Source of the DNA: Chrysochromulina tobinii
Taxonomy: Eukaryota
Reading direction: 5' to 3'
DNA length: 58,385 bases
Assembly: GCA_001275005.1 (NCBI GenBank)
Contig: JWZX01003227.1
Span: 1-58,385, forward strand
This document shows positions 25,863 to 46,381 of this stretch, in pieces (position 1 is the first letter of the stretch; each line of letters opens with the position of its first letter). The position numbers were made by a program, and so were the translations under genes. The notes beneath the pieces were generated by a model. It saw only the letters and a list, made by a program, of their open reading frames with translations. It was not told the origin of the DNA and ran no database searches.

Positions 25863-27938
25863 TCAGTCTTCACACGAGTCTTCATCTTCAACCTTCCCCG
25901 CCTCCTCGTTTTCAGATTCGCTCTCAGGATCGCGGCTCCGCCGCCGCTGCCTTGCGCTTGCGCTCATCGTTTCCAGCAAGCCGCCGCGCCGCGCCGCTGC
26001 CTGCAGCCGCCCTCGTCGGACCGGCAAGACATCATCAATGAGTAGCAGCTGCGCGAGGCAGCCCAGGACGCCATCGACGAGCTGCAGTTTGAGGTCGAGT
26101 GGCTCGAGGATGCCGGCACTGGCAGCATCGGACAGCGACTGCAGGTGCACCTCGCCTACCGCACTCGGCGCCTGCGGCGGCACCAACACGAGTCCCAGCG
26201 CGCACCGCGACGACCGATCGTGCGCAGCTCGCAGGCTCTGTAGCACCGACGGCCAGCGGCTCGCATGCGCCGAGAGCGCGCGCGCTTGCGCCGCATTCAT
26301 GTGCAGCTGTCGCACGGAGCGACGGACGCGCTGTGGTGAGCACTTGCATGCAAGGCGGCTCATCCGTGGCAATCAACGTACCTGTCGCACGGGAGCGAGG
26401 AGCGCGGCGGAGAGGATCTGCAGCACGGCCGTTTGCTCAGGAAGGAGCGCCGTGGCGCTCGCGCTCGTACGCGCTTGCTTCTGCGCGGCTACCAACCGTC
26501 GCACGCTCGCCTCGAGCTGCATCTCAGCCGCCCCAGCGCCCGGGAGCGCCAGCAACACTCTGCGCCCCCACTCCTTTGCGTCCGCGTCAGTCCTCGTGCG
26601 CCCCGCGTCCAGCCACAGTCGCAAACTCCGCAGTGCACGGCCGACGGCGGCAGCGTACTCGTTTGCAAGTCCAGGCGAGGTAGCACGCACGACGAGCGAG
26701 CACAGCTGCGGCGCGCTCGCGAGCTGCACGCGCACGTAGCCCCGCCCGCCCAAGCGCAAGCACTCGAAGCTGCATCCTGGCTGAGCGAAGCCCGCAGTCG
26801 GTGTGAGCAGCGCCGTGAGCTCTGCCGGCCGAGGCCAGCGCTGAAGGATGGAGATGCCAGCCGCGGTAGCGAGCGCGCGCAGGTCGTCCTCATCGACGCC
26901 GGGCACGGCGCATACGCCGTGCTGTGCGCACAATTGCACCGTCAGCGCGCTAAGTGGTGCACCGCTCAGTAACAGCCGCACGCCGGCGGCATGGGCTGTC
27001 TGCACCCACGCCTCCCGCGATGCATGCACGAAGTCCACCCACCGGCCGGCCGCGCTGTCTATGCCGTTACAAGTAACGGCCGCGCTGTCTATGCCGCCGG
27101 CAGGCGCTTGATCCGCACTGACCACCACCTCGGCGGGCACGCCAGCCTCCACAGCCCTAGCCTCCGCTGCCGTCTGAACCTCAGGCGCTGCCGCATGGGC
27201 ACCGAGCAGCAGAAGCACACCATCCTTGCCGAACACTGGCATCAGCTCCGAGGACGGCGTGCCGCCGATGATTCGCCCTGCGGTTGCGCACGAGCGACTC
27301 GGCTGCGCACCGGGTGCGGCGACGAGTGCCAAGCACCTCGCGCGCGCCACCGTCCCGTCGAGTTGCCACGTGGCCGCTCCAGCAGGCAGCAGCGTGGCCG
27401 CTCGGGCAGGCAGCACCGCCTCGATGAGCGCCTCGGAGAGCGAGGCCGACGCGCTCGCACCCAGCTGCACGCCGAGCGCCGTTGCGGCTACACGATACGC
27501 ATCGGCACGAAAGGCGTCATCGCCGTCCAGCGTGCGCACCGCCTGCTCTCGCCAGCACTCTGTGAGGTTGTGCGGCAGCACCTCGAGCTGCAACCAGCAG
27601 ACGGCCCTTGACAAGCGCACCCGCCATGCCGCTTGGCGGTCCTTAGGAAGCGCTTGCAGCTGTTGGCCCACCTCGGCGCGTGCAGCGTCAAGCATAAGAG
27701 CGTAGGCTTTCACACCGTCACCGGCTATCTGCTCATGTGCTGATGCGGCTTCGAGCATGAGGCTCTCGATGGGGTGCTGGCTGACGATGGAAGAGAGAAT
27801 GCTCGCGCCACTACAAGTTAGCACTGCCTTACGCGCGGCAGTCAGTAGGAGTTTCTCGCGAGCCAATGGACCGAATGAGGAGCCGAGCGCGCTGCCAAGG
27901 AGTCCGACGTCCCACTTGTGAAAGTCGTAGACGGCCAT
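25863..27938 (-). CDS. BBS10: Chaperonin-like Bardet-Biedl protein, best resembling BBS10; exons 27938-26382 and 26306-25863
   Basis: SSFGP, QHPI and AGDGVK (BBS10-type GDGxK); after splicing 26307-26381 the TCP-1-like C-terminus GILEPLDLKLQL...LLLIDDVL is in frame. Confidence 0.7.
26307..26381 (-). other. 75-nt GT-AG intron with the palindromic motif and a direct exon-end duplication
   Basis: CAG|GTACGT...CAG|CTG; exon end TCGCTCCCGTGCGACAG versus intron end TCGCTCCGTGCGACAG. Confidence 0.85.
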
Positions 27939-27963
27939 GCGGCGATTGAGATTCCACAAGTTT

Positions 27964-28031
27964 AGTCAAGCCGTCAAGTCAAGTCAAGTCAAGTTCAAGA
28001 AGTCAATTCAAGCCAAGTCATTTCAAGTCAA
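27964..28031. promoter_or_regulatory. (AGTCA)n / GTCAA repeat cluster between divergent BBS10 and ENY2
   Basis: About ten gtcaa/ttcaa units starting about 25 nt upstream of the BBS10 ATG. Confidence 0.45.
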
Positions 28032-28274
28032 TCCATCGAGTGAGCAAAGTTCTGCTCTTCACCACGAGTAGAGATCCAGCGCATGCGTGTTTACGCGAAA
28101 TCGTCACCGTCACACACTCACTCACTCACTTCATTCACTCAGTCACTCACACACACTCTCGTGAACCGCCGGAGCCTGACGTGGCGAACGCCCAAAACGC
28201 CGCTTCGAAGCATCGCAGGCGAGCGCCACGAAGGAGCGCTAGCGTTGGTGTGGTCAGCCGCCGCCCGCGCCACG

Positions 28275-28883
28275 ATGACGTCGACGACGGAGTTGAAGAA
28301 CAGCATCCAAATGAAGCTCGAGCAGACGGGAGAGTACGACAGGTGAATGCGGCGCGGTGATGCACTCGTGTGTGGTGCGTTGGTGCACGCGTGGGCGGCT
28401 ACCTGATGCCTCTAACCTGTGTGTGTGGCTTTCTCGCGATGGCGACAGGCTGAAGGAGCATTTGCGACAGAAGCTGATCGACTGCGGGTGGAGGGATAGA
28501 CTCAAGGAGCACACTATGGGTGCGTGCGCTGCGTTCGCACGCTGCTACAGCCGCCTCGCATGTCGGAATCCCTTGTGGATGCTGACCGCCCGATCGACTC
28601 GCAGAGCTCATTCGTAGCAAGGGTGATACAACCATGACGGTCGAGCAGCTGACGCAGGAGATCATCCCGCGAGGGCGAGGTACACCCCTGCCCTCGAACG
28701 GCGTCAAGGCTGCCACTCCCGCGAGAGCCTCGCCAAGGCACATCATCTAACTTCCCAGCAAATGCTCACGGCAGGGACTGAGCATTCCGTGTGCCGACGT
28801 GCACGTGCGCAGGGACGGTGCCCGACGAGATCAAGCAGGAGCTGCTCCAGCGGATACGCAGATTCGCAGAGCAGCAGTCGTGA
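28275..28883 (+). CDS. ENY2: ENY2/Sus1 (SAGA and TREX-2 subunit); exons 28275-28342, 28449-28519, 28605-28679, 28813-28883; missed by the ORF track
   Basis: Three GT-AG introns give MTSTTELKNSIQMKLEQTGEYDRLKEHLRQKLIDCGWRDRLKEHTMELIRSKG...IIPRGRGTVPDEIKQELLQRIRRF. Confidence 0.92.
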
Positions 28884-29457
28884 GCCGCTGACAGGTGCTC
28901 CCGATAAGTGCGCCATGACAGACGTATCCTCGATGCCCTAGAGGCGCGCCAACTGTCTGTCGCCCGGAGGACTGCGGAGTCTACTGTGCCCAAAGTTCAG
29001 TCGCTGTTGCTCATGGTGGCGTGGGTCGAAACCCCGGGTGGCGGTCTGCGCGGTCGTACTGGCAACTGGGATGCCGCATGCGTGCGTGGCAAGATTCTCC
29101 GGTTGCTTTCCTTCACAGGTGTTTTGTGTGGGCAACAGGCGCGAACGCAGCGTGTGAGCGCTCAGCGTATTACTAGCCATGTTTGCACTATTAAACTAAG
29201 TGCGCGGCGCGTGCGTGCGTGCATAACTGGATGAAACGGGTGAAACAAGGACCCAGTTTAGGACCGCGCAGCCCCTCCGGACCGCACGGAACGTGTCCCC
29301 CCCCCGCCCCGGTCGGTCGACGAACGCACACGGAGAAGAGAGTCAGAGACCGCTCGCTCGGCTGACGGCTCCCCTCTCTTTCGTCTCTGGTTCTGCGGTG
29401 CAGGTCGGGGCGTCGAACGCGCCGCGACGCTCGACATGGCGGCGAGATGCGAACCAG

Positions 29458-29586
29458 GAGGCTGCTGCGCCGCGGGCACGAGCCGTCGCTCATCCAGCAG
29501 CGTATAGGCGCTGTGATGAGCACTTGCATGCAAGGCGGCCGAGGCTACTGCGCCGCGGGCACGAGCCGTCGCTCATCCAGCAGCGT
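29458..29586. repeat. 46-nt direct repeat (29458-29503 and 29541-29586, one mismatch) flanking the palindromic motif
   Basis: Read directly from the sequence; the single mismatch is the ATG18 stop TAG versus CAG. Confidence 0.95.
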
Positions 29587-30858
29587 GCAGGCACCGCCCT
29601 CGAGTGTGTACATCAGGAACGAGCCGCTTGAGGTGACCACCTGCAAATACGTCTTCCCATCCTCGGTGCCGCCGTCTCGCAAGGCCGCCCGGCACCAGCT
29701 CCCTTCCTTTTGGGGAGGAATCTTGACGTGCACGTGGGCAACGTCCCGTCCGGCATGCGCAGCGGAGGCCGTGTTGGCAAGCTTCTCGCGCAACCCACCG
29801 AGAGGGCCGCGGCGCCGCGCGGTGGCGCCGCCGCTGCTGCCACCGCCGCGTGGAGTCGCGACGCGGACTTCGCCCAGACGCCAGACGTGTACGGTGCCCG
29901 TCGAGGAAGCGGCGCATAGGAGCGGGCCGGTAATGGCTCCCTTTTTCTGCTTACTGGCGGTAGCACTGCCGCTGCCGCCGGCACAACCATTTCCGGGGCT
30001 TGCCCTTCCGGCGGCGCCGGGGCTCGCCCTGCCGGCGGCGCCCGGGCTCGCTCTGCCGGCGGCGCCCGGGCTTGCCCTGCCTTCGGCCGGCTCGGCGTCA
30101 GCTGCAGTGGCTGGCTGCAGGTCGCCCTCCGCCGCCGTCGGCGCCTCCGTCGAGAAGGCAATGCTGTGAATGGTCGCTCGCGCCGTGCCTCTACGGAAGG
30201 TGTGCAGGAGCTGGCCGGTGGCCACTCCGTGGACCCTGATGACCGTGCCCTTCAAGCTCGCGGTCGCGACCATGTCGCCACGCGCGTTCAGGGCGAGCGC
30301 CGCGAGAGGCGAGTGGTGAGCGGCAATCGTGCTCATCACGTGGCCGTGCGCTGCGTCGAAAAGTACCACGCGGCCGGGGCCGCTACTCGCCGTCGGCAGG
30401 AGGGCGCACACGGAAGTATCGCCCTCGTGTGTGAGCGCCGCCAGGCCGTGTGGGTTCGCATCCGTCTCGAGCGTGTGCAGCATTCGCATGGTTGCCAGCT
30501 CGAAGATGTGCGTTGCCTGGGCAATGACGACGATGAGGCGTGATCGATTCATGAGCACGTTCAAGATATCTGTTGCAAAGGGTATCTCGAACACAGGCGC
30601 CGCGGTCGAAGAGTTCCACAGCCGAAGTCGGCGCGGTGAGTCGCCGGCGCGCTCGCCGCAGCCGACGATGGCGATCAGCGATGAGGAGAAGAGCATCTGA
30701 ATGACTCCCACACCACAGTCACCGCTAGCACATGGTGCGAAGGGTTGACATGTGAACACGGACCACGCACGTCGCCATCCCACGGCGATGTGCGTGGCGT
30801 CCTGGTTGAATGAGATGCATTGTATCTGGTCCTCCACCAAGACCTTGTCCTCCGGCAT
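29545..30858 (-). CDS. ATG18: ATG18/WIPI PROPPIN
   Basis: SFNQD, MLFSSSLIAIVG, AHHSPLAAL, ATASLKGTVIRV, FRRG lipid-binding motif, SSTGTVHVW. Confidence 0.92.
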   Translation of the reverse strand: MPEDKVLVEDQIQCISFNQDATHIAVGWRRAWSVFTCQPFAPCASGDCGVGVIQMLFSSSLIAIVGCGERAGDSPRRLRLWNSSTAAPVFEIPFATDILNVLMNRSRLIVVIAQATHIFELATMRMLHTLETDANPHGLAALTHEGDTSVCALLPTASSGPGRVVLFDAAHGHVMSTIAAHHSPLAALALNARGDMVATASLKGTVIRVHGVATGQLLHTFRRGTARATIHSIAFSTEAPTAAEGDLQPATAADAEPAEGRASPGAAGRASPGAAGRASPGAAGRASPGNGCAGGSGSATASKQKKGAITGPLLCAASSTGTVHVWRLGEVRVATPRGGGSSGGATARRRGPLGGLREKLANTASAAHAGRDVAHVHVKIPPQKEGSWCRAALRDGGTEDGKTYLQVVTSSGSFLMYTLEGGACTLLDERRLVPAAQ

Positions 30859-30933
30859 TTCCGAGGCGGCAGCTCAATGTTCACAAGAGATTTCACACTC
30901 CATCAAAAGTTTCGGAGAATGACGTATTTTGGT

Positions 30934-33900
30934 TTAGCTCCGTGACGCGTACGTTGCGCTTGGGGCCGGCGCGGGTGCGGGCGCGGGCGCCGCGAGCACA
31001 TTCTTGAACGAGACGAGCCGCTCGGCACGCTCGCGATAGGTGCGGAGGAGCTCGGGGAGGAGCTCTTCGAGCTTCTCGTTCTCGGCGATGGCCGAGCGGA
31101 ATGTGACCTTGGCCAGGCCCGTCGGCTCGCCGGCCGCCGCATCGACACCGACGTGGTGCGTGAGCGTGCCGCCCGTCATCTTGTTCATGTGCAGCTGGAT
31201 CTTGAGGGAGCCTACTGGTAGGGCACGCGATGCCTCACGAGAGGCCTGGCGGCGCGCGAGGATGGCGTGCAGCGGCTCGTAGAGGGGGAGCACCTGCGCG
31301 AGGCCGAGGGGCTGCGGAACGAAGGCGAAGCAGCCCGGCTGCGCCTCGCCATAGAGGAGGCGCCACACCTCACAGAGCGTCAAGCGCAGCCGGGCGTGCC
31401 CCGCCGAGCCTCTCCCCATGAGTTCCCACAGAAGGCTGGCGGCCGCAATGGGCGCCGCCTCCCCGCGTTGCGCGAGCCGGCGCCGCTCGCGCTCGAGCCC
31501 CGCGCGGTAGCTCACGGCGGCGCGTGCATGCCTGTCCCTTGCCTCGTCCTCATCGTCGAGGCCGTCCTCGCCGACCGCACGCGCGCCGCGCACCGCCTGG
31601 CTCCCCTCCGAGTGTGAATTCACAGCCTGCTTGAGCAGGCGCAGCACCGCTTGCCAGAGCCACAGCTGCTCTAACGGCTCGTCCTTCCGCCGCTCCGAGA
31701 GCCCGAGGGCGAGCCCGAGCACGGACGTCGGGCGCGGGTGCGACGGCTCGTGCCGCACGGCGCCCGTGCCGCCCGTGCCGCCCTCGCGCCCAGCCCCAGC
31801 TGTGAATTCACACTCGGCTCCAACCGCTTCATCGCGAACGGCTGCCGCCTCGTCTGGCCGCTCAGGTCCGGCGAGAAGGGTGAGCCGGAGGAGGCAATCC
31901 GCGGCGGCCAGGCGCACGGACGGCAGCTGGCCGGCGGCCTCGTAGTGCCAGTAAGTGCGCCAGCTGGGGGTGGAGGCGGTGTCGGCCGAGGCGGAGGCCG
32001 AGGCGGAGGCGGGGGCGGAGGCGGGGGCGGAGGTCGATGCGGAGTGCGCGCGTGCAATCTCCACTGTACAGAGCGCATGCAGCGCGGCGCGGCAGAGGGC
32101 GCCGCCGTCGCGCGCGCCGGCGCCACGCCCTTCGAACGAGACGGAGACGAGCCGAAGCTGCCGCGTGATTCGGGCAACGACCTCGCGTTTTGCCCCTGGG
32201 TGGCGGCAGCGCGTGGTCGCGAGCGCCCGGAGCAGCGCGCCCACGTAGGCGCCATCGTCGAACTCGTTGCTCTCGTTGTCGTTCTCGTCGATGAGCTGGA
32301 GGAGCAGCTCGAAGGCGCCGGCCGGGGTGAAGCCCGAGGCGTCGCGGCACGTGCCGAGCGCCTCGACGAGCGCCTTGAACGTCGCGTACTCGCTCAAGTC
32401 CCCAAAATCGTTCGGGAGGACGTGGCCGCCCGTGTCGCACAGGAGCTCGCGCGCGAGCGCCACGAGCGCCTCGGCAGCCGCGCCCTCCGACACGAGCGCC
32501 GTGAGGCGCGCGAGCGCCGCAACGGCTGCGGTGCGCACGCGGAAGTACACGCTCCGGTCGCGCGCCACGTCGACGAGTGTGTGGACGGCCGTTGGGTTGG
32601 GAAAGGTAGCGAGGGCCGCCGCCGCCGCCTCTCGCGAGGGCACGTCCCGATCAAAGAGCAGCTGCGCCGTGCACATGCTCTCGGGCATGCCGGCCCACGC
32701 GCCATCGCCGGCGCGCCCGGTCCACGTGACGCGCACTGGCAGCTCGAGCCGCGGGTCGAGGCGTACCCAGAGCAGCGGGAGCAGCTGCCACGGCGCGGAG
32801 CTCGCCTCGTCCGCATCGTCGACGGCGGCGCGCGAGCGCTTGAGATGGCGCCGTCGCCGATGCGAACTGATCACCACTTCAATGAGCTGCTGCCGATCGA
32901 CTGGGCTGAGCTTCTTGTCGATCGTGCGGCTCACGCCGCCGTCGGCGCCGTCGTGCTCACCCCACCCGATGACGAGGGGGAACTCTCCGATCTGTGCGGC
33001 GGCCAACGGCTTGGGCGAGATCACGACGAGCTCGAGGCGGTGCTGCGGCTGGTTGAAGGCGAAGTTGGCGCGCAGCGTGGGGCACGGCTTGGCGGCGTAC
33101 ACCCACTCGCTCGCGAACGAGGCGCCCAACCGCACTCCCTGCGCCACGCATGCCGCCAGCAGTGCCGCCGTCGACGAAATGCGCTCAGGACGGCGCTCAT
33201 GCATCCCAGCCACCGCGGACGTCGAGGCGGTCGGCGTGCCGGCGTGCGCTGCGCAGCTCGATTCGACTGGCCGCCTGTTCGGCCGACTGGGCAGCAGATG
33301 CGCGAGCAGCCGGCTGAGCGACTGTTGGCCGCCGTCGGAGCGGATGGCAGCGGCCTCGATCATTCGCCACACGAGGGGCGCCTTGCGCCGGCGGTACTCG
33401 GTGAAGAGCTGCTCGGGATGGAGCCCACCGCCCCACCGCTCAAGCTCGGTGCTGTCGGGCACGAGAGCCTCTGGAGGCGCTCCCGCCTCCGTGAGCCACG
33501 CGCGCTCCTCGCTCAGCCGATGAGCTGCCTCGTCCGAACCGAACAGTGATCATCAGCGATCATCAGTGGCAATCAGTGGTCATCAGCGGTCATCATCAGT
33601 GGTCATCATCAATGGACACTCACCTGCCTCGTCCGAGCCAAACTCATGACGCGTGTACTCGTGCACCAAGCGCCCCTCGAGAGCCATGAGAAGCCATGCC
33701 TCGCGCCAACCGTCGAGCCACAAGAGCGCGAGCAGCCACGAGCGGCCAAGCGCACGGCCGAGCTCGATGCAGCTCGGGCGCGCCGGCTCGAGCGCCTCGG
33801 GCGAGTGGAGCCAGTGAGAAGAGAGCAGCACCAGCCCTCCAAACGATGCTGTCTCCTCACGAGCTCCTTCGAGCACCACGAGCACGTGGCGTGCGTACGG

Positions 33901-35292
33901 CGCCCTGGCCGCCAACGAGTTGCTCACGCCGCCGCCGCCGCCGCCGTGGCTGGCGCTCAGATGCTGCTGGCTGTTCACGCCGCTGTTGGCAAGCGCGAGC
34001 GTCCTGTTCACACCATCATCGTCCACTTCCATCGCCTCACTCTCCTCGGAGGCCCTAGCAGCGCCGTCTTGGGCGTCCTTGCACATGGAAGGTCCTTCGC
34101 CCGCCCGACCCGAGCTGGCGGCCTCGGCCGAAGCCTCCTCGGCCGCGAGGCGAGCCTCCGCCGCGGCAGCCACCGAGGGCTCGAGTAGGTGGCGGTGCAA
34201 GAAGGCGAGCGTGGACGGCAGGTGGCGTGCGAGGTAGAGCAGCTGTGGCCAGAGCCGCATGCCGGACGGCGAGCGCGCTGCATCGCCTTTGGGATGGGCC
34301 GCGGCGCCCGCGGGGGTGGCGGCGCCCGCACAGGCGGTGCCCACGCCGGCAGATGGATACGCGTCGCGCGTGCCTAGGACGAGCGTCACATTGGGCAGCG
34401 TCGGGTGAGGCAGTGACGAGAGATGGCCGACTACGAAGCCGACCTGTGCCGCGAGGGAGGGCTCGTCGAGCGCAAAGCCCCACGTGGCATGGCGCTGTGC
34501 TGCGGAGCGCGCCACCGGCGCGCTGCTCACGCCGAGGCAGCGGCCGCTCGCATGCACCTGCAAGCTCGCGTCCGCCGTCACATGCAGCGTGATCTGGCAG
34601 CGCACCTGCGGGCAGTCGACACACGGCATCCAGCGGCGCGGAGCACCCCACTCGCCACTCGTGTGCGCGTAGACGGCATCGGCGCAGCCGGCGGAGCGCA
34701 CAAAGTGGACGCCGCCACGCGGCTCGCTCACGCTGAACTCGACCGAGAGCGTCACCTCCGGCCCGTCCATGGCCACGCTTCCGTCCTTTGTACGTGGCCT
34801 AGCCCGCGTGACGATGGCAGCAGGCAGCGGGATCGCCAGCTCACCGTAGTGGAAGCCCGCACCTCGCGGCTCGTCCCACTGCTGGTGCGATCCGATGAAG
34901 GTGGCAGCACCGTGGCACCGTTGGAAGGAGACGAGGTCCCGTGTGCGCCGCCAGCATGGCGGCACGACAGCCTCGGCGAGGCTATCGGCAACGGGCACGA
35001 CTGGCTGTGGCTCAGCGCGGGCGTCACTGGTGGTTATGAGCTCACCATCGAGAAGGCAACGGTGGACGACGCACGTGGGTGCGCAGTTGAGCCGGATCTC
35101 TGTCGTGGACGCGCTGAGCCGAATGCGGAACTGCGCCGTCCCACGCAGCGAGCCACGACCCTTGAGGCTCACGCTGACATGGATGGACTGCGAGAGCAGC
35201 AACCAGCGGTCACCCGGGCTGAGTTCCAGCTTGGGCGTGGCGTCGGCGCTCGCTGTGCTCGCCGTGTTCGCCGGCACGAGCACGAGGGCCAT
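30934..35292 (-). CDS. TAF2: TFIID subunit 2 (M1-aminopeptidase-like fold); exons 35292-33624 and 33524-30934
   Basis: RRWMPCVD, LLWVRLDP, QLLFDRDV, VYFRVR, PNDFGDLSEY, ENDNESNEFDDGAY; the 99-nt intron joins the 569-aa and 842-aa ORFs in frame. Confidence 0.88.
33525..33623 (-). other. 99-nt GT-AG decamer-repeat intron with a 13-nt direct exon-end duplication
   Basis: ctgcctcgtccga at both 33525-33537 and 33624-33636; donor GTGAGT. Confidence 0.9.
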
Positions 35293-35359
35293 CTCGCGCC
35301 GTGAACTGTGAAACTATGCTGTGAAACTGTGATGGTGTGAAACTTGGATCATGCTCAAC

Positions 35360-37450
35360 TTATTTCCGCCTTTTCACGCTGCCCACGCGCCGCTGCTTCG
35401 TTAGGGTGCCATCGTCGGCCATGGCCGCGAGCTCGCGCTTCGGCGGCGCGAGTTTGGCCGCGTCGAGCATCTCGACGAGCAGCTCGTGGAAGACGCTGTG
35501 CTCACGGATGCTCACGCCGAGGGAGCTGGCGCGCCGGTGGCGCTCGGGGGGCACCTTGAGGTTGAGCGTGTAGATGGCGCAGGGCACCTCCTGCTCGAGC
35601 GCGTCCTTCGCCATGAGCATCTCCTCATCGCGGGGCATGCCCACTCCATACGAGAGTAGGATGAGCCTGTCTCCAGTCTGGCGCGAGGCGAGGAAATCGA
35701 GCATTCCTTGGAGCTCGCCCGCGCTCTGCGCCTTGAGAATGGCGGCCGCCCCCGTCGCCTCGCCTAGCCTCTCGGCTCGTGCCAGCCCATCGGGAGCCTC
35801 CGCCCATTGATCTAACGGCTCGTCGGCTTCCACAGCGGCTTCCACAGCCTCCGGTCCCTCGAGCGCCTCGCCCTCTGGTAGCGCCGCCTCGCGGGCCGCC
35901 TTGCCCATCGGCTCATCCAGCTCGATGCGGCTGTCAAGGAAGGCCTCGACGGACTGCCGGTAGCTTGCGAGCGCGAGGGCCTCTTCTCGTGGCCATGCCC
36001 GCAGCAAGTCGCCTACTTCGAACCTGCCCACGCCAGCGCTCTTGGCGTCATCCCAGCCGACGAGCAGTCGCACCGGCTGGCCCGCAGTGGCGCTGCGCAC
36101 CTCGCACACGCCGCCGGTCGGTCCGGGGCCGCCATCACCGCGCTCCACCAGGCCGATCTGCCGCACGCGACCGCTCGCCGAGCCGCACACAAAGTGCTGT
36201 GCGTGCCGCAGCGTGCCATGGCGCACTATGACGAGGAGTGTGGTGCCTTTACCCGGCGCGCGGCGACTCTCAAGTACGAGGGCGACCGCCTCGTCCTCTG
36301 GCGGCACGGCGCGCCACACGGGCACAGCGCGTGGGCACAGAGCACCGCTGCTTGAACGGCCACCGTCGCTGCGCGCCGCCTCCGTCGTCATCGTCGCCGC
36401 CACACCACCACCTCCACCTCCTCCACCACCACCACCACCCCCGTGCCCTGCCGCCATCGCAGAGGCTGCGGGCACCGCGCTCGCACGGCCGTCGAGGGCG
36501 AGCAGCCGGCAGCGCAGCGCACTCACAAGCGCGTCAAGCCCCCAGCCACGTGGCGCACACAGCAGGGCCGGAGGCGCGGCCGCTCTCGTCGCTAGAAGGC
36601 GTGCGGCGTGCCGGTCCGTGCCTACGCGCCGCAGCTCGGTGGCCCAGAGCCGTCGAAGGGCCGCGCGCAGCGCCACGACGCGGCGCGAGGTCAGCGCCTC
36701 TGATCGGCATTCGCCCGCCGTGTCTGCCTTTGTGAGCGCGAAGAGCACTGGTTGCCCGCGCGCGGCGCAACGGCGGAGGACCTCGCGCGTCTGCCGCTGG
36801 ATGCCCGCGTCGACCGCCACGAGCACGAGCGCCAGGTCGGCGCCGTCCGCGACCACGGTGCGCATGCCCTCGAAGACCTGATGCCCAGGCGTGTCGACAA
36901 AGGCAAGCGTGTGCAACGAGGGAGAAGAAGAAGCGCCGTCCTCAGAGGATGGGAGCCTCAGGAGCGACGGGCGCACACACTGCGTGATGCCACCAGCCTC
37001 TCGTGCCGCAGCATTCGATCCCAGCAGCGCATCGAGCAGCGTTGTCTTGCCGTGGTCCACGTGCGCCAGCACCGCCACGACGCCTGTGCCACTGGACCGA
37101 GGCGGCGGAGGGCGCGGCGGCGGCAGCGGCTCGGGATCAGCAATGCGCACGGCAAGGCCATACTCAGCGGCCAGCGCGAGCGATGTAGCGAGCGGCACAA
37201 AACATCCCGACAGAGCGCGTGAGCGGTAGGTGCCAGGCTTTAGCGCAAAGCCCGGAGGTAGCAGCGGCAGCAGTGAAGCGCTGCTGGTCTCCTCGCCACT
37301 GTGGTGCAATGCAAAGAGTCCGCGGAGCTTCTTCCATCCGACACGCCGAGCGAGTGCGCTCTCGCTCACTCTCGGCTGACCAAGCGCGCGCAGAAGCTCC
37401 TTGGGCCGCATGAACGGCCGCAGGACCACCTCTATCTTGGCGCTTCGCAT
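35360..37450 (-). CDS. Divergent translation initiation factor IF2-like GTPase
   Basis: HVDHGKTTLLD, EAGGITQ, FVDTPGH, G4 motif TKAD, beta-barrel domain II and a C1-like end (HSVFHELL). Confidence 0.75.
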   Translation of the reverse strand: MRSAKIEVVLRPFMRPKELLRALGQPRVSESALARRVGWKKLRGLFALHHSGEETSSASLLPLLPPGFALKPGTYRSRALSGCFVPLATSLALAAEYGLAVRIADPEPLPPPRPPPPRSSGTGVVAVLAHVDHGKTTLLDALLGSNAAAREAGGITQCVRPSLLRLPSSEDGASSSPSLHTLAFVDTPGHQVFEGMRTVVADGADLALVLVAVDAGIQRQTREVLRRCAARGQPVLFALTKADTAGECRSEALTSRRVVALRAALRRLWATELRRVGTDRHAARLLATRAAAPPALLCAPRGWGLDALVSALRCRLLALDGRASAVPAASAMAAGHGGGGGGGGGGGGGVAATMTTEAARSDGGRSSSGALCPRAVPVWRAVPPEDEAVALVLESRRAPGKGTTLLVIVRHGTLRHAQHFVCGSASGRVRQIGLVERGDGGPGPTGGVCEVRSATAGQPVRLLVGWDDAKSAGVGRFEVGDLLRAWPREEALALASYRQSVEAFLDSRIELDEPMGKAAREAALPEGEALEGPEAVEAAVEADEPLDQWAEAPDGLARAERLGEATGAAAILKAQSAGELQGMLDFLASRQTGDRLILLSYGVGMPRDEEMLMAKDALEQEVPCAIYTLNLKVPPERHRRASSLGVSIREHSVFHELLVEMLDAAKLAPPKRELAAMADDGTLTKQRRVGSVKRRK

Positions 37451-37534
37451 TGGTCCAGGGTGTCGAAATTAATCATGGGCTGTGAACAGCTGTGTGAACA
37501 ACATGAAAAAGGAGCCCGCTTTGCGCGCACAATA

Positions 37535-38938
37535 CTATCCGTCGGACTCCTCGTCATCTTCGTCATCTTCGGCTAGTCGGAAGCGGTTGTCGGCTGCGGC
37601 GTGCTCAGCGCTGCGCGGCTCGAACCCCGGTCGTGTCAGCAGAGTAACAGCGCCTGGCGCTGCCGAGGGTGGCAACGCGTCGTCGTCGCCCAGCCGCGCG
37701 CCAGCTGAAGCATCTGCAGGGTCCGTGGCTGCCATCCCGTCACCGCTGCCGTCACCGCTGCCGTCCACGAGCACTGCTCGCTGCTCGTCCTCGTCGTCCT
37801 CGCGCAGGATCGGGTACACGCGGTAGTCGAGGCGCCGCGCCTCGCCCTCGGCCGTGTAGTGGCTGTGGAAATGGCAGCGCTGGCACAGGTAGCAGGGGCT
37901 CGCGTCGGCGAACACGTCGCCGTGGACCGCCCACACGGCGGGCGCGCGCAGGCAGACGACGCACTGCATGGGAACCTCCTTTCGGCGGAAGATGATGCAC
38001 GGCACCGCGGCGAGTTGTCGAGCGACCGCCGAGGAGGAGGAGGCGAGCCAGCAAGCCACGAAGACGAGGGCGTGCTCGCAGTCGCCGTGGTGCACGAACA
38101 GATACTGGCGGCCCAGACGGATAGTCAGGGAACCCAGCGTAGTTGCGTCCATGGGGCGGGGCGGTGGTGGTGCGCGCCCGTGCGCCGCGAGCCACGGGCG
38201 CACATGCATGCTCAAGTCCTCATTGCCTGACGTGTACCAGCTGCCCTCGATGCAAAAGGCGGCGGAATTCGACGGCGGCCGCAGCGCGGCGGCGGCCGCC
38301 GCGTCACGCTTGGCGAGCTCGTGATGCTGCCGCGCCAGTTGAACGCCCGTCAAGCAGCCGCCAAGAGCTGACGAGAGATCGCTGAGCGTATGACCGGAAT
38401 GCACTTCGACTGTTCGCACGTGGATGTGCTGCCGGTAGAAGGCCACGCGCAGCAGCACCGTGCCTTCGGGCAGCGCCGCCTGCTCACCAGCGCCAGTTGC
38501 TGCTGCCGAAGACGCCGGTGCCGCTGCGGCCAGCGTGGTTGCCGCACACATCGGGGCAACAGGCTGTTGAAAACAGCTTGTTGCCCCGACGCTGTTGGTG
38601 CGGCCCTGATGGCGCCTGCGCTTGGCGCGCGGCGCGTTGTCGCCCGCGGCTGCGGCGGACGTTTCTGCGCGCATGCTTCGCAGAGGGTGTTCGCCGTCTG
38701 AGGACGACAGCCCGCTAAACCTCTGCTGGCGCAGCTCGCTGAAATCGAATGGAACGGAGGCGCTCAGGAGTGCATTGTCGACAGGCAGGGCCTTGTACGT
38801 GGTGCGCTGGCTGTGTGCACGGCCGAAGCTGGAGACCTGGAACGGTTCCGACTCGCTGTACTGATCCTCAAGCTCTGAGGCCACCAGGCCGACGCTAGGG
38901 CGGTGCGTCACGGGTAGGCTGGAAGGGCGACTTGCCAT
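37535..38938 (-). CDS. SNAPC3: snRNA-activating protein complex subunit 3 (SNAP50)
   Basis: AFCIEGSWY, IRLGRQYLFVHHGDCEH, CVVC...SPCYLCQRCHFHSHY zinc finger. Confidence 0.88.
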   Translation of the reverse strand: MASRPSSLPVTHRPSVGLVASELEDQYSESEPFQVSSFGRAHSQRTTYKALPVDNALLSASVPFDFSELRQQRFSGLSSSDGEHPLRSMRAETSAAAAGDNAPRAKRRRHQGRTNSVGATSCFQQPVAPMCAATTLAAAAPASSAAATGAGEQAALPEGTVLLRVAFYRQHIHVRTVEVHSGHTLSDLSSALGGCLTGVQLARQHHELAKRDAAAAAALRPPSNSAAFCIEGSWYTSGNEDLSMHVRPWLAAHGRAPPPPRPMDATTLGSLTIRLGRQYLFVHHGDCEHALVFVACWLASSSSAVARQLAAVPCIIFRRKEVPMQCVVCLRAPAVWAVHGDVFADASPCYLCQRCHFHSHYTAEGEARRLDYRVYPILREDDEDEQRAVLVDGSGDGSGDGMAATDPADASAGARLGDDDALPPSAAPGAVTLLTRPGFEPRSAEHAAADNRFRLAEDDEDDEESDG

Positions 38939-39112
38939 TTCACGCGTGTGAAAAGCCTCTCACGTTTACATGAACGAGAGAACCCTTTTTTTCAACGTCA
39001 AGCCTGGTCATCGCACACTGTGCTCCTGTGGAGCCTCGATGGAGCGACCTGTTAATTTCCGGGAAGTCATGCTCCTCCAGCCAACGCTGGCTCCACGGGT
39101 CGCCGCGCTTTC

Positions 39113-39910
39113 ATGCCGAGCAGTAGGCACTCCAAGCGCTTCTTGCTCCTTCTTCTTGGCAGCGTGAGCGCCTTTAGTGCAGTGCCGCGAGTCGTGCATC
39201 GGTCTGCAGGTCTCATTCCAACGCTGCCGGCGCGTGCACCACCCGCCACGATGCTGTCGGGTTCCGCGCTCCTCGTCGCCCAACGGGTGTGCCCGGCGCT
39301 CGGCTTCGTGCTCTCGAGCGCACTGTACTGTGCGCCCGTGCCCACGCTAAGAGAGGCCATCAAGCAGGGCTCGCTGGGCGCGTTCAATCCGCTGCCATCG
39401 GCTCTCATGGTGACTGCCACGACAGCGTGGCTCGGATACGGACTGTCGGTGCGCGACCCGTGGATCGCGCTGACCAACGCGCCGGGCGCTTTGGTGGCGC
39501 TTGCGCAACTCGTCGTCATCTTGCCGCTCATGAAGCCGGGTAAGCAGTTGCAGCAGTTCCAGGCGACGGTCCTCGGTGGCGCTGCGTTCACCATTGCGCT
39601 CTGGGGCAAGCTGATCTTTGGCGGTGCAAGCGCGGCCGCGCGCTCAAAGGCGCTCGGCTTGTATGCGACAATCATCTGCATCGCACTCTTCGCCTCGCCG
39701 CTCGCGACGATTGCGAGCGTCGTGCGCGAGAAGAACTCGGAGTCCATCCTCGCGTCTCTGACGGCGGCGCAAGTGGCCAACTGCGTGCTCTGGACCACGT
39801 ACGGCGTGCTGGCCGCGCGCGACCCCTTTGTGTGGGGTCCGAATGGCGTGGGCCTGGTGCTCGGGCTCATCCAGCTCGCGCTCAAAGTGTGCTTTCCCGC
39901 GAAGAAGTAG
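39113..39910 (+). CDS. SWEET (MtN3/saliva) sugar transporter with a bipartite plastid-type leader
   Basis: APVPT, FNPLP, WLGYG, FASPL, WTTYG, PNGVGLVLGLIQL; leader FLLLLLGSVSAF. Confidence 0.88.
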   Translation: MPSSRHSKRFLLLLLGSVSAFSAVPRVVHRSAGLIPTLPARAPPATMLSGSALLVAQRVCPALGFVLSSALYCAPVPTLREAIKQGSLGAFNPLPSALMVTATTAWLGYGLSVRDPWIALTNAPGALVALAQLVVILPLMKPGKQLQQFQATVLGGAAFTIALWGKLIFGGASAAARSKALGLYATIICIALFASPLATIASVVREKNSESILASLTAAQVANCVLWTTYGVLAARDPFVWGPNGVGLVLGLIQLALKVCFPAKK

Positions 39911-40369
39911 GCGTGGGGCACATCGACAGAGGGATGCGGGAGATTTGCGGGAGATTCGTCACACAGCTGAGGATGCAGGTGATGATGCGGCCACCGTGCT
40001 GTACTTTGTATTCGTCTCACGAGATCGACTCGTCTCAGAGGGAGCTGGCTCAACTGCGCTCGCGCTGTCTTGGATGCGTCATGTGAGTAGGGGGGGAGGC
40101 AGCAGGGGGGGGAGGGTCTGATCGTCTGAATCCCAGGCGCTTGAAAAAAGCATCGACGCCTATCGCGATTATTTATCGTTTTTGTGTGGGCAGAAGTGCC
40201 AAGTGGCACTAGACGAGACGGTTAGGGGCAGCGGTTTTTAACCGGCGGTTCGCGAGCAGCCGAGCTAACAGCTATCTCCGGGACCACGCTCGCCACTACT
40301 GGCTCTCTGGCTGTAGCCGGCTGTACACTGGGGCCTGGGGCCCCTGAGCCTGACCTTGGCTGGAGCCAC

Positions 40370-41818
40370 TTACGAGTGGGATGTTGCTGCGGGGGCTCCG
40401 CTCGCCGCCGCGAGCAGCTCCTTCCAGCGGCCAGCAGCTTCCGGCACGAGCCAGTCCCACGTCTGCTCCACCGCATGCGAGGCCTTAGGCGAGGCCGCAT
40501 TCTGCTTCTGGACTGCCCACACCATGGCCTCGAGCATGCGCTGCTTGCCACCGTCGTGCGTGAATCGGCCGTCAGAGTAGGCGCGCCACACCGTGGAAAG
40601 CACCTCGGGGAGCGGTGCCACCTCGGTAATGTGCCACAGACCCGGCGATGCCGAGGGCAGCATGCCTTCCGTGAGGACGTACCGAGGCGAGTTGCTCCCG
40701 CCCTTTGGCGCGCCGTGCTGCTTGCCGACGATCACGAGGCACGTCGGCCAGTACGCGAGGAGCATGTCACCCTGCTGCCGCGCGACGACCACATTGCCCT
40801 TCTTGTCAAAATACTTGTCGCGCTTCCGACCCTTGGGCTTGGCTCCGCCTTCGGCGGTGCGGCAGGCGGAGCGGGGGTCACTGGGCGCCGCCAGGGCTTC
40901 GGTTGCCGCCTCGCTGCTGGGGCACGGCATCGTCGAGTGGTGCGAGTGCGCCGACCACGTGCCCGCGGCCGCGCTCGCGATCGCGCCGCCGCTGGCTTCG
41001 CTGGCCATCAGCTCGGCCACGGTCTGGAAGCCTTCGAAGCCTGCGGGCAGCGGGCGCTTCGCGCCGGTGACGGGCGTGGGGGCCACACCTGCGGGCGCGC
41101 AGCGAAACTGCGGGCGCACGAATGGGATGTGTTTATCCTGTGGGGCAACGAGACTCGACGCAGCCAAAGGGCGGTGAGTAAAGACCAAAGTCAGCAGTGG
41201 GCCCTCGCTGCCCCTGCCACGCCGCTCGACGCATACCTGGCGCATGAGCTCCTTCATGCGCGAGATGCACTCCCCATCGGGTAGGTGCGCCGGGGCAAAG
41301 GGGCGCAGCACGGCCACGGGCAGCCACCTGCCGCCCCCCTCGAGCGGCTCGGCCTCGAGGCACCGCACCGGCGCGGTGAGGAGCTCGGGTGAGTGCCGCG
41401 TGCTGACGCTCTCGCCGTACAGCTTGAAGCGGATGTCACGCTTGCCGAGCACGGCCTCGTCGAGCGCCCCGACGACGTAGACCTGGAGCAGCTCGATGTA
41501 GTTGGCCGCGTTCGAGTGCGGCAGGAACTTTTTGAGCTGCCCCATCGCGGCATTGACGTGCGGAAAGAAAGCGCCCACCTGGCTGCCGTCCGGCGACTGC
41601 AGCACCGTGATGTTCTCGAGCGTCCAAAATTCGACCTTGTCGACGCGCAGCTTGATCACGGGCGCGCCCGTTGGCGCGAGCACCGACAAGTGCAGCCGCG
41701 AAGCGTCCGCGCCGCCGCCGGTCGCGACGCCGCACGTCGCCCGCACCATCGTTCGCCGGTACAGAGCGCGCGAGGTGGACGTCCATCGCTGCTCGTTCAC
41801 GTGAACGTCTAAAAACAT
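40370..41818 (-). CDS. Hypothetical protein
   Basis: Long ORF with coding-like codon pattern and no recognised motif; start uncertain (41818 or 41749). Confidence 0.6.
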   Translation of the reverse strand: MFLDVHVNEQRWTSTSRALYRRTMVRATCGVATGGGADASRLHLSVLAPTGAPVIKLRVDKVEFWTLENITVLQSPDGSQVGAFFPHVNAAMGQLKKFLPHSNAANYIELLQVYVVGALDEAVLGKRDIRFKLYGESVSTRHSPELLTAPVRCLEAEPLEGGGRWLPVAVLRPFAPAHLPDGECISRMKELMRQVCVERRGRGSEGPLLTLVFTHRPLAASSLVAPQDKHIPFVRPQFRCAPAGVAPTPVTGAKRPLPAGFEGFQTVAELMASEASGGAIASAAAGTWSAHSHHSTMPCPSSEAATEALAAPSDPRSACRTAEGGAKPKGRKRDKYFDKKGNVVVARQQGDMLLAYWPTCLVIVGKQHGAPKGGSNSPRYVLTEGMLPSASPGLWHITEVAPLPEVLSTVWRAYSDGRFTHDGGKQRMLEAMVWAVQKQNAASPKASHAVEQTWDWLVPEAAGRWKELLAAASGAPAATSHS

Positions 41819-42153
41819 CACACCCGTGTACCACCCCCGTGCGTTCGGGCGGACCGGACCGGGTCGAACGGGTGCCCTTAACGGCTAATATGTAAACATG
41901 CCCACACAAGAAATCTACATGTACTGTAACAATTGAATAGTCCACGAGAGCGGTACACAGATTTCGTGTTGATCGGGGGCAGCGGACCCGTCCGTGTGGT
42001 GAGGCGGAAGACCTACAGACATGCTCTAGTTCTCGCTATTTTTGGTGCTTTTTTACTCGCGTGCGTCGTGTTCCCAAGAGGACCAAGAGGCGACCATCCG
42101 TCCCACGAGGTGGCGCCAACTTCTGCGCAGTGGCGCCCGGCTTCTCCGCGATC

Positions 42154-44564
42154 ATGAAACCTCGCCGCCTCATCACCTGGCTCGGTTCGGAGCACGACAT
42201 CAGCTCCGACGCGGACATCCAGCTCGTGACCGGTATTCCCAAGCAGCATGCTGTGACGCTGGACCACAAAGATGGCGGCGGCAGACTGACATTTGTCTTT
42301 GACATTCGGTCGCTGACTCCAGGCTCGACTGCGCCACCGCTGCCACACATTCCGCCGCTGCCACAGCCGGATGAGCCGCCGCCGGCCGACTCGTCAACCA
42401 GCGTCCTGCGTGCTCGCGCCGACATGCTACGCAGGCGCGGATTGGATCATCTCCAGGGCGTGAGGCGCAGCGTGCGCGAGCAGCACGCGTCGCTGCGCGC
42501 GCTCGACGCCGCATTGCAATCGCTGCGCTGCGCGAGCGCGCACGGCGCGCCCACCGAGGCGCTCAGCGACGAGTGGCGCGGCGTCGTGCAGGCTGTTGCG
42601 GGCGAGCGGGCGGCCTCCGAGGGGCTGCCGCTGCAGAGCTCGCCCGAGGCGGGGCAGCAGCTGCTGCTCGCGAGCGAGGCGATCAGCCATCAGCAGGTGG
42701 CGCGCCAGCAGACAGCGTGCGCGCTCGAAGCCGACCTGAGCGACGACCTCGGCGCACAGCTCGCCACGATGGAGGCGAATGAGGCGCAGCTGCACGAGCT
42801 GCATGCAACAGTGATCGCGTCGCAGGCGATGCTGCGCCAACACATCCACCAGCGGCTGCAGCGCATCACGCAGTTGCAACACCACATGGCCGCGCTCTAC
42901 AGCCGTGCAGCCGCCGCCGCCGCCGCTGCTGCCGCCGCCGCCGCTGTCGCTCAGTCTCTCTCACTCCATGAGCCAGCGGCATCGTCGAAGCAGCCGACAT
43001 CGAAGCCGCAGCCGCCTTCGACACCGCCACCGCCGTCGACGCCAACGGCGCCCACCCCCCCGGCGGTGCCGGCCGCTCGCGCGCCTCCCACGCCGGCCGA
43101 CGCGCCGCGCTCGGCCAGTGGCACTGCTCACGGCACTGCCACTGGCGTGCCCTCGGTCGAGGGCGTTTCGTCAAAAGGAGACGGGCTCGAGAGCGTTTCG
43201 TCAGAAGGAGACGGGCTCGAGAGCCGCGCAATGGAAGATTTGGGCGACGGCGTGCTGATTCCGCGGATGATCGCGCGCCTGACGACGGCGGAGCGCACGC
43301 CTACGCTCGAGCTGCGGCCCGGGCTCAGCAGCATAGGCGAGTACGCCGTCGAGCGCTGCATCGGCACCGGATCCTTTGCTCAGGTGTACCTGCTACGGCG
43401 TCTCTCGAGTGCGGCGGTTCGTCAAAAGGCGAGCGGGGCGGGCGTGCAGCCGCCGCAGGCGCCGAGCAGCCTGGCCCCGGCTGGCCTGACGACAACAGCG
43501 ACGCTCCTCGCGCTCAAGGCCATCGATCGGCGGAATCTGACGCCCAAGACGGCGTCGCTCCTCGCCTCGGAGGTGCGCATCTTGCATGCAATCTCTCACC
43601 CGAACATCGTGCAGTTGCATGCGGTGGCCGCCTCGGCGCGCCACGTGTTTCTGTGGATGGACGCGGCGCACACGGACCTTGCCGCGCTCATCCGCGCGCG
43701 CACCGCCGGGGCCGGCGCGCGCGCGCCGCCCGACGAGCTCGAGGCCACCGCACTCCTTCGCCAGCTCGTCGACGGCCTATGCTACCTGCGGGTACGCAAG
43801 CTGCTCCATCGCGACATCAAGCCGCAGAACTTGCTCCTCTTCTTCCCGGACGCCCACGAGGACGCGTACGAGGGCGCTCTCGCGGGCGCGGGCGCTGTCG
43901 TGGGCGGCGCCAGCCCTCATCCCGTGGCCGACGGCTCTGCTCGCGCGGCGCGCTTACGGATCGCCGACTTTGGCCTCGCGCGTGCCCTCGATGGCGCGTC
44001 CATGGCCCGTACCGTCTGCGGCTCGCCCCTGTACATGGCGCCCGAGGCGCTGCGCGGGCAGCCCTACGGCGCCGCCGCGGAGGTCTGGTCCGTGGGCGTG
44101 TGTCTCTTCGAGATGCTCTCCGGGCGGGTGCCTTACAGCGGCGCGACAGTGCCCGAGCTATTGGCCGCCATCGATGCGGCGCCACGTGGCCAGCCGCCCG
44201 CCGTGCCGGGCGTGTCTGCCGCCGCGACGAAGCTGCTCATCGCAGCGCTTCAGCCTGTGCCCGAGGCGCGCATCAGCATCGAACAGATGGCGACGCATGC
44301 ATTCCTCTGTTCGACGCATGCATGCCTTGACGATGCATGCGTCGCCCTCGACGGTGCCGGTGCAGCGCCCGGTGCAGCGCCCATCCGCGCGGCGGCAGCA
44401 CCAGCTATGTCGCCGGCGCTGCCCCCAGTGACCGCGAGAGCCGCAGTGCAGGCTGAGGCCACCCAGGCTGAGGCCACCCAGGCTGAGGCCACGTCGAAGT
44501 GTACCACAGGTTCCACACGCTCCCTCGATGCTGGTGGGCTCAATGCTGGTGGCGGGCCCGTTCT

Positions 44565-44606
<42 letters not shown>

Positions 44607-45827
44607 CGCCTTGGGTGAGACGGCGAATGGCTTCATGACGGTCGGGCCGCCTTCGACCCTCGCGGCCGGGAGCAGCTTCCTCCTCGAGTGGGCTCTGACC
44701 AGCCAGCCGGAGACGGCCGTGCTCGAGACGGCCGTGCGTGCCCTCACCGCCGAGGTGCGCCATCTCGAGCTCGAGCTCACGCGCCGTCTCGAGCACGAGC
44801 AGCAGCGGGCGGCGGTTACGGCGGAGGCGGCGGTTACGGCGGTTACAGCGGTTACGAGATCGGAGCCCGAGGGCGCTCACGAGGGCGCTCAGAGCGCTGC
44901 CGAGGGCGCTCACGAGGGCGCTCAGAGCGCTGCCAGGCAGCGGCTGCTCGCCGCCCTCCAGCGGCTCGTTAGGATGCTCCCCTCCGCTGCGAACGCCTCC
45001 GCCCCCTCCCCCAACGGCGGCGCTGTCGTGGGCGTGGACGCTATCGTGGGCGTGGACGCTGTCGTGGGCGGCGCGAACGCCTCCGCCCCCTCCCCCAATG
45101 GCGGCGCGGCCGCCGAGGCCGCGCCCGCTCCTGCCGCCGCCAGCGCCTCGAGAGAGAGACGCGAGGAAGCGTTGGTGGCCGAGGCGCTCGAGGGCGCGCT
45201 TCGGGCCCAAAAGATCTTCCGCGACAAGGTGGAGGAGTGCCGTCGGCTGCGCGCGTCCATGCGGCGCTCTCCGGTGGTGACGAACCCCGCGCGCTCGAGC
45301 GATCGCTCGGGGTTAGTCACCACCGGATTCCGCTTCGACGACCGTGTGGCCTTCGTGCGCCGCGCCAGCGTCCCCCGGGGGAGTGCCCCCGGGGGGAGTG
45401 TGGCCGCTGTGGGCGCCGGGTTGGGCGCTCCCGGGCAGCTCGTGGCGGCGGGCGGCAAGGCAGCGGCGCCCCATTCAGTGCCATTGTATGTTGCATTGCG
45501 TGAAGGTGCCGCTGGACCTCTCCCTCCTTTCTCTGGTGGGCGTCTCTCTGCATGCAGGTGCTCACCACGGCGCCCTCGCCTCTCCCCACAGGTGACGCAG
45601 GGCCTCCCTACTTTCTCTCGAGGGCGTCTGAGGAGAGCCTGTGCCGCGCGATGCACTGTACGCATGCGAGCCTGCCGCCCGTCGCCATCGGCAAGGTGGT
45701 GCACGTCGAGAAGCTGCACGCATCCCCCGAGAACGCGGCGGCTCTTGGCTTGCGCCCTGGCGCGCCCTTCAACGTCATCACGGCCGAGATGCACACCGAC
45801 CTCGCGCCCGAAGTGACGGGAAGGTGA
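42154..45827 (+). CDS. ATG11/FIP200-like scaffold with an embedded ATG1/ULK kinase domain; exons 42154-45505 and 45592-45827
   Basis: Kinase motifs IGTGSFAQV, ALKAI, HRDIKPQNLLL, IADFGLAR, TVCGSPLYMAPE; Claw-like C-terminus after splicing; N-terminal helical region resembling ATG17/ATG11. Confidence 0.8.
45506..45591 (+). other. 86-nt GT-AG intron with the palindromic motif (alternative in-phase donor at 45536)
   Basis: GAAG|GTGCCG...CCCCACAG|GTGACG; splicing shifts into the frame of ORF 45552-45827. Confidence 0.8.
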
Positions 45828-46302: not shown

Positions 46303-46381
46303 CTGAGCCGCACCTCAGCAATGTATCGCAATGTATCGCAATGTATCGCAATGTATCGCAATGTATCGCAATGTAGCGCAC
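46303..46381 (-). other. Putative 79-nt 3'-UTR intron: (GATACATTGC)x5-6 with an exact 15-nt flanking direct repeat
   Basis: ctgagccgcacctca at 46303-46317 and 46382-46396; sense junctions CAG|GTGCGC...CTCAG|. Confidence 0.65.

Follow-up and report, generated by a model that had tools for sequence, protein, structure and literature searches.

Introns built from a short, probably mobile core and a long duplication of the adjacent exon in Chrysochromulina tobinii

A 58,385-nucleotide (nt) stretch of Chrysochromulina tobinii DNA (assembly GCA_001275005.1, contig JWZX01003227.1; hereafter the window) carries three copies, A, B and C, of a short core containing the hexamer GCATGC. The family to which they belong makes introns in which one end is supplied by the element and the other by a duplicated piece of the host exon. 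The underlying architecture, an insertion of the core that brings a long target duplication with it, is in our judgement very probable, and the route by which the core is copied can be proposed only tentatively.

A first-pass annotation of the window had reported two 32-nt copies identical at 31 positions (26328-26359 and 29508-29539) and a reverse-complement copy identical at 23 of 25 (45549-45573). These three matches were confirmed: at three or fewer mismatches 0.02 were expected by chance, and three were reached in 0 of 100 shuffles. No fourth copy was found in the window within 6 mismatches of the 25-mer, and base composition was that of GC-rich eukaryotic DNA. Reading frames supported by Pfam agreed with the annotation in placing all three copies in sense orientation to their host genes, and the decamer TGATTGCCAC that it had seen upstream is present in the 5' arm of intron A. 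The host of this intron, which had been called BBS10, could be upheld only to the level of the Cpn60/TCP-1 family, Cpn60 profile positions 254-392 being matched upstream and 425-486 downstream (weakly, E = 0.058). A feature absent from the annotation is the long direct repeat of the host gene that brackets every copy (Table 1); the first 40 nt of intron C are a copied downstream exon start. An intronic setting of copy B was rejected: no GT-AG or GC-AG pair excises it exactly on the strand of the gene, and the ATG18 stop codon, which the duplication spans, is also where the protein ends in orthologs of 91-93% and of 61% identity. Insert B would thus leave the protein intact and lie in the 3' untranslated region. 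The ATG18 protein of the window is identical at 429 of 434 positions to an annotated protein of the freshwater haptophyte Chrysochromulina parva, which makes this species or a very close relative the host.

The motif is not confined to the window. A metagenome scan with a 20-mer gave at least 137 loci, and all family counts and locus numbers (L) below refer to the matches listed from it; viral contigs and prokaryotic genomes gave no match to the motif. The 175 matches represented 165 distinct ones; full flanks were available for 156, and 114 of these stood apart from other cores (isolated copies). Loci L096 and L113, which look like chance matches in unrelated coding sequence, were left out, as were L067, L102 and L137. 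Extrapolation from the three copies per 58 kb of this one window gives roughly 3,000 copies genome-wide, the genome of C. tobin being 59 Mb (PMC4580454).

A direct repeat across the core (score of at least 12) was present in 91 of the 114 isolated copies, compared with 30 of 1500 mismatched flank pairs and 45 of 222 displaced positions at the same loci. Inverted matches between the flanks occurred in only 7 of the 114, indicating that terminal inverted repeats are not a feature of the family. With a looser core definition and ten duplicate, orthologous or chance loci removed, the repeat was found around 117 of 142 isolated copies and measured 13-52 nt (median 29). Among 112 isolated family copies, 90 had the repeat and 22 did not. 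The repeat-bearing copies comprised 53 of the acceptor-arm type (like C), 12 of the donor-arm type (like A), 9 whose junction is flanked by the repeat on either side, and 16 for which no exact splice pair exists.

Minimal inserts are about 24 nt long, a shared core of at least 23 nt lies between the repeat copies, and conservation stops at position +23. Between about a third and a half of the intron comes from the duplication. Similarity between copies of types A and C stops short of one splice boundary, where the intron consists of a locus-specific exon copy. Paired repeat copies differ at 85 of 1516 sites. The substitution spectrum (42 transitions, 49 transversions) does not discriminate between age and error-prone copying. 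Donor base counts are nearly equal in both copies and lend no support to the idea that the intronic copy gains a better donor through its mismatches.

Exact GT-AG excision of the insert plus one repeat was available in 65 of the 90 repeat-bearing copies in motif sense and in 8 in antisense; with GC donors allowed the figures were 74 and 31. A Pfam scan of 242 flanking frames from 48 copies, most of them without a match and with one low-complexity match set aside, placed 10 loci in sense and one in antisense, the latter (L018) being an unspliceable copy with a weak match. Host genes at the core loci belong to unrelated Pfam families. Joining the exons as predicted brings back conserved stretches of helicase, kinase, ABC and TrmO proteins, including what we take to be GETGSGKTT, HRDLK..DFG and LSGGE-type motifs, and excision also restores the continuity of a GH127 profile. 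In the helicase gene of L017 introns of 77, 71 and 79 nt, predicted before the RNA look-up, were skipped exactly in the RNA contigs of 1, 2 and 2 of 4 runs, and a 133-nt intron with twin cores was skipped in those of 1 run, so that all four motif introns of this gene are spliced. The repeat adjoins the AG of the element in 64 of 75 copies and its GT or GC in 12 of 13, the core-side ends being ragged; gaps of at least 3 nt between repeat and splice site occurred in 9 of 75, most of them readable as decay. In the 53 acceptor-arm introns the distance from the predicted branch site to the AG is 23-33 nt.

Sites without the insert were found in relatives, one case for each of two families. L030 has a 78-nt core intron where its close relative L033 has a single repeat copy and no insert, and in the decamer-filled sibling family L080 lacks an insert, about 75 nt long, that L057 carries together with a repeat of 27-29 nt. 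The duplication runs over a stop codon in copy B and in L046, and some copies have no splice arms. By reading of the likely coding frame, L018, L038, L097 and L128 are antisense in-frame copies. Lengths of spliceable inserts showed no strong phase bias (36/27/26). At L010, L038, L077, L094, L114 and L128 unspliceable copies seem to be maintained in frame, where they lengthen the protein by 17-23 codons; CMQVLTT, HASAHHG and AVVSTCMQ are examples of their signature peptides. Taken together, the many copies, the empty site, the exact splicing and the sense bias support the mobile introner-like core that the first-pass annotation had offered as one of two interpretations.

The annotation had also linked the palindromic filler to a decamer filler, and this link was borne out, since core and decamer fillers share one footprint, the long exon repeat. 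Decamer introns carry an acceptor arm of their own that ends in CTCATCAG. Among the GT-AG introns with long exon repeats in all loci scanned, 61 belonged to the seed, 11 to core variants, 28 to the decamer class (including 3 antisense misreads of core introns) and 4 to others, 3 of which look decamer-like. No long-repeat intron in that scan had the branch half without GCATGC. Four other RNA-confirmed introns of the window are without the motif, and at most 7 letters fit on both sides of them. A different 10-mer array, of 6 copies, lies between 15-nt repeats with GT-AG ends at 46303-46381 (-); it is possibly an intron lengthened by 10-nt slippage, as in L033.

The spread of the core is partly local. 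A rare 32-nt variant is common to copies A and B and was found in none of 158 other copies. Variants are shared more within than between contigs (one pair per contig, n = 25, P about 0.002), a test in which strain differences are a confounder among the non-culture loci. In 58 kb of flanks of the culture loci 36 extra events were counted, where the density of the window would give 3, a contrast inflated by the choice of loci through the motif and intron-rich genes; over all loci 48 of 50 extras were on the same strand. Inverted local siblings occur at L097 and at L017/L018. At L004, L009, L011, L022, L052, L109, L115 and L117 cores with their spacers, or whole introns, are arrayed head to tail; such arrays may stem from unequal exchange between long repeats or from rolling-circle copying.

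As a tentative account of the whole route, we propose that the core is a non-autonomous mobile piece of intron, copied from an RNA template into staggered nicks. Excised intron RNA would serve as the template, probably through a reverse transcriptase, after 5' truncation near GCATGC or 3' trimming about 9 nt behind the branch site, for which CTCAC is the candidate. Nicks 13-52 nt apart would give rise to the target duplication, and the duplicated exon would provide whichever splice site the piece lacks. Insertion would be blind to splice sites and possible on either strand, selection would retain those copies that splicing removes exactly, that preserve the frame or that lie outside coding sequence, and new copies would often derive from a neighbouring intron. 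This RNA-template route is favoured by the sharp ends at the splice sites of the element together with the ragged ends on the core side.

Several points weigh against this account. Selection alone would also leave sharp ends at splice sites. Only two filler families occur among the long-repeat introns, although every intron yields RNA, and the inverted siblings and local spread fit copying at the DNA level equally well. No reverse transcriptase or autonomous partner turned up, no whole-genome search having been made, and no poly(A) or simple-repeat tail was seen in the flanks by eye, without a formal count. The differences between L030 and L033 and between L057 and L080 may each be a gain or a loss. 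Unspliceable inserts lean to multiples of three only weakly (10 of 19, P = 0.065, in a systematic set that replaced a hand-picked one of 12 of 17). RNA contigs (4 runs, low cover) show no joint over A, B or C, which does not argue against splicing there, the cover being low; an RNA joint between 27992 and 45550 was rejected as a repeat artefact. Finally, L078 and L090 (98.9% identical) differ at 6 of 531 sites. At two of these sites one and the same substitution has occurred, once in the exonic repeat copy and once in the intronic one, a coincidence that a single insertion leaves unexplained, like the intronic copy of L080, which in the comparison with L057 tracks its own exon. The pattern in L078:200-300 and L090:290-390 suggests a copy refreshed or re-inserted at the same site.

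It is also conceivable, though we find it rather doubtful, that the propagating entity is the 24-nt branch-point fragment of the excised intron RNA itself, used as template at nicks near its own gene. If this were true, each event would duplicate about 30 nt of exon, and thousands of introns would be half exon copy and half core. It would constitute a route of intron gain without transposon ends, spreading locally, able to rewrite the ends of existing introns and undetectable by end-to-end introner searches.

Copying at the DNA level, with the same architecture, is a realistic alternative to the RNA-templated route. A DNA copy in the vicinity would be the source of the core that enters a staggered break, through a HUH (Replitron- or Helitron-like) transposase that recognises the core or through microhomology-mediated template switching of the host. 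Variable duplications that end in RG, together with fuzzy, parent-derived ends, are produced by Replitron-1 (PMC10288648), and one Replitron-like locus has been reported in C. tobinii. In agreement with this alternative, donor-arm copies follow AG in 12 of 13 cases, and local and inverted siblings and head-to-tail arrays are found. Also in its favour, 19 of the 20 non-seed inserts that were recovered with just the branch half retain GCATGC, as do 7 of the 8 unspliceable inserts among them; this points to a cis role of the hexamer in mobility or splicing. On the other hand, terminal direct repeats are not evident, minimal inserts of about 24 nt compare with 52-53 nt of aligned termini per end in Replitron-N1, and hairpins are no better than in shuffles. 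The ragged side differs between the donor- and acceptor-arm types, and capture beyond the splice sites is scarce, as the few gaps mentioned above show. Random filler would be expected from generic repair, but one or the other of the two fillers is present in about 100 of the 104 sense long-repeat introns.

An abortive intron loss, in which a break in an older intron is repaired on spliced complementary DNA and 15-50 nt of exon replace one end, is improbable. Repeats do begin or finish at the exon junction, and the shared substitution of L078/L090 and the exon-tracking copy of L057/L080 look refreshed. Armless copies with repeats on both sides, over stop codons (B and L046) or in antisense can do without a pre-existing intron, only a few of the 22 copies lacking the repeat could be full-length parents, and in L054/L099 the intronic copies do not follow their own exons.

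Less probable still is a non-mobile host signal kept by selection, either a protein-binding dyad, as the first-pass annotation had suggested, or a splicing enhancer of GCAUG type combined with a branch site. GCATGC (positions 0-5) is kept in 63-67 of 67 non-seed copies, i.e. 94-100% per position, while its neighbours vary (the preceding base is T in only 28 of 67), and the tight spacing of branch site and AG would fit a signal. GCAUG presumably resembles a Fox-1 site. The dyad had been argued from a compensatory T..A to C..G change in copy C, where CTGCATGCAG is located at 45548-45557. Complementary outer pairs occur in 60 of 162 family copies, against 63.6 expected under independence (TA 53, TG 4, CA 49, CG 3; Fisher P = 1), and none of 33 changed inner pairs is compensated. 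The base that precedes the palindrome often comes from the target in copies of the acceptor type, and none of six stretches folds better than its shuffles (z from -0.5 to +1.6). These results refute the compensatory change and speak against the dyad; only the inner GCATGC of the palindrome is conserved. Five other RNA-confirmed introns of the window do without the motif, and a host signal leaves the duplications, the empty allele, the exonic and antisense copies and the local sibling variants unexplained. A signal role may add to the persistence of the core. An assembly artefact or chance is already largely refuted: repeats can be mis-joined in short-read metagenome assemblies, but the number of matches far exceeds expectation, the repeat copies have diverged, RNA skips exactly the predicted spans, and the same inserts are found in diverged relatives.

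The core family is an introner in the broad sense that falls outside both the type based on miniature inverted-repeat transposable elements (MITEs) and the end-to-end definition. Like the MITE-type introners of Polarella, Symbiodinium, Aureococcus, Micromonas and marine Chrysochromulina metagenome-assembled genomes (MAGs), it is multi-copy and becomes spliceosomal introns, with one splice site carried and the other recruited from the target duplication. MITE-type introners have a short fixed duplication, often terminal inverted repeats, and match end to end, whereas in the core family the duplication varies from 13 to 52 nt, either end is replaceable and the shared part goes down to 24 nt. The duplications described are of fixed 3-8 nt in Polarella and Symbiodinium (10.1101/2020.10.14.339549) and of 4 bp in an example from a marine Chrysochromulina sp. 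(10.1101/2022.06.06.494994); the pipeline of the latter work demanded similarity at both intron ends. In the part of a 2025 survey cited here, C. tobinii has 0 families and 15 haptophyte rows give duplications of 2-5 nt where called (PMC12130899). Since similarity at both ends is required and C. tobinii scored 0, introns of the present kind may be uncounted in other genomes. The portion of a 2022 supplement that lists marine Chrysochromulina MAGs with introners does not contain the letters GCATGCA, consensus sequences not being included in this comparison (PMC9860276).

Replitron-1 and Replitron-N1 of Chlamydomonas resemble the core family in their variable duplication and fuzzy parent-derived end, as well as in copy-and-paste movement and a palindrome near an end (PMC10288648). 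Replitrons insert 3' of RG in fixed orientation, which the AG before donor-arm copies would match, an AG that splicing also requires; the acceptor type shows no such rule. Replitrons are 0.9-3.6 kb long with short terminal direct repeats and a Rep transposase (PMC10288648), whereas core inserts are 24-60 nt and by eye have no terminal repeats; Replitrons are also under-represented in genes (PMC9977147), whereas the core family forms introns. Intron gains at staggered double-strand breaks in Daphnia likewise copy the adjacent exon end to the opposite end of the intron, but their repeats are 4-12 bp and the part of the report cited notes no shared filler family (PMC4202315), whereas core-family repeats are about three times longer and two fillers recur. 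In tandem genomic duplication the duplicated exon also supplies splice sites; in the classic case both come from a duplicated AGGT with no foreign insert (PMC3443670), whereas here a mobile core that includes a branch-like site lies between the copies and the repeat is on both sides of the junction in only 9 of 74. Variable-length duplication is the described signature of insertion by elements without long terminal repeats (non-LTR: long and short interspersed nuclear elements, LINEs and SINEs, and Penelope-like elements, PLEs), which also have truncated ends (PMC9977147). The core family is unlike these in having no visible tail, no Rfam match (0 in the window) that would indicate a head derived from tRNA, 5S or 7SL RNA, and both ends truncatable. 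It is also far shorter than SINEs are known to be.

In the open literature no description of the core family was found. The origin of new spliceosomal introns is a long-standing open question, and this family joins a mobile intron element, tandem duplication of exon sequence and insertion at staggered breaks, which are usually treated apart. Presence/absence variation between close relatives in a cultured genus makes the mechanism directly testable. Gene annotation in Chrysochromulina will be led astray by the duplicated exon ends and by copies that remain in frame.

Table 1. Positions of core copies, their repeats and decamer-filled introns in the window
Feature	Position	Strand	Remarks
Intron A, 75 nt, GT-AG, predicted, donor-arm type	26307..26381	-	In frame with internal TGA; Cpn60/TCP-1-family gene
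Element-borne donor arm of A with decamer TGATTGCCAC	26360..26381	-	Same arm in 10 of 12 type-A introns
24-nt core, copy A	26328..26351	-	GCATGC hexamer, predicted CTCAC branch site, GCGC end
Intronic copy of upstream exon end, 25 nt	26307..26331	-	Source of acceptor AG; overlaps GCGC of core; three gaps of 1 nt in the alignment
Exonic original of repeat A	26382..26405	-	
Insert B, 37 nt	29504..29540	-	Core at 29508-29531; behind stop codon, without splice arm
Repeat B, first copy, 46 nt	29541..29586	-	Last codons and TAG stop (29545-29547) of ATG18/PROPPIN gene
Repeat B, second copy, 46 nt	29458..29503	-	One difference (TAG to CAG); putative 3' untranslated region
Intron C, 86 nt, GT-AG, predicted, acceptor-arm type	45506..45591	+	Protein-kinase gene
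Decayed copy of downstream exon start	45504..45545	+	34 of 42 columns; source of donor GT
24-nt core, copy C	45550..45573	+	
Element-borne pyrimidine tract and CCCCACAG acceptor	45574..45591	+	Like arm in 90 isolated copies
Acceptor AG and exonic original of repeat C	45590..45629	+	
Decamer-filler intron with 20-nt copy of upstream exon end	33525..33623	-	Spliced exactly in RNA contigs, 2 of 4 runs
Decamer-filler intron, predicted, with 15-nt exon copy	56044..56116	-	
Decamer arrays (TGATTGCCAC-like)	279-335, 33525-33623, 48339-48400, 56044-56116, 57597-57699		Long exon repeats

In the host gene of copy C (42972-45827, +) Pfam confirms the kinase domain only, and family and homolog searches with its last exon or exons gave no match. 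We take this gene to be ULK/Atg1-like, with last exons that recall the claw domain of Atg11/RB1CC1, presumably a possible Atg1-Atg11 fusion. A small gene at 28276-28884 (+), which we assume to be ENY2/Sus1-like, has three RNA-confirmed ordinary introns and serves as a motif-free comparison. At 40715-41652 a cluster of substitutions separates RNA contigs of several runs from the DNA, pointing to a second allele or a paralog. Long direct repeats of about 60 and 37 nt also occur at 25466-25628 and 57355-57426, with spacers unrelated to the core.

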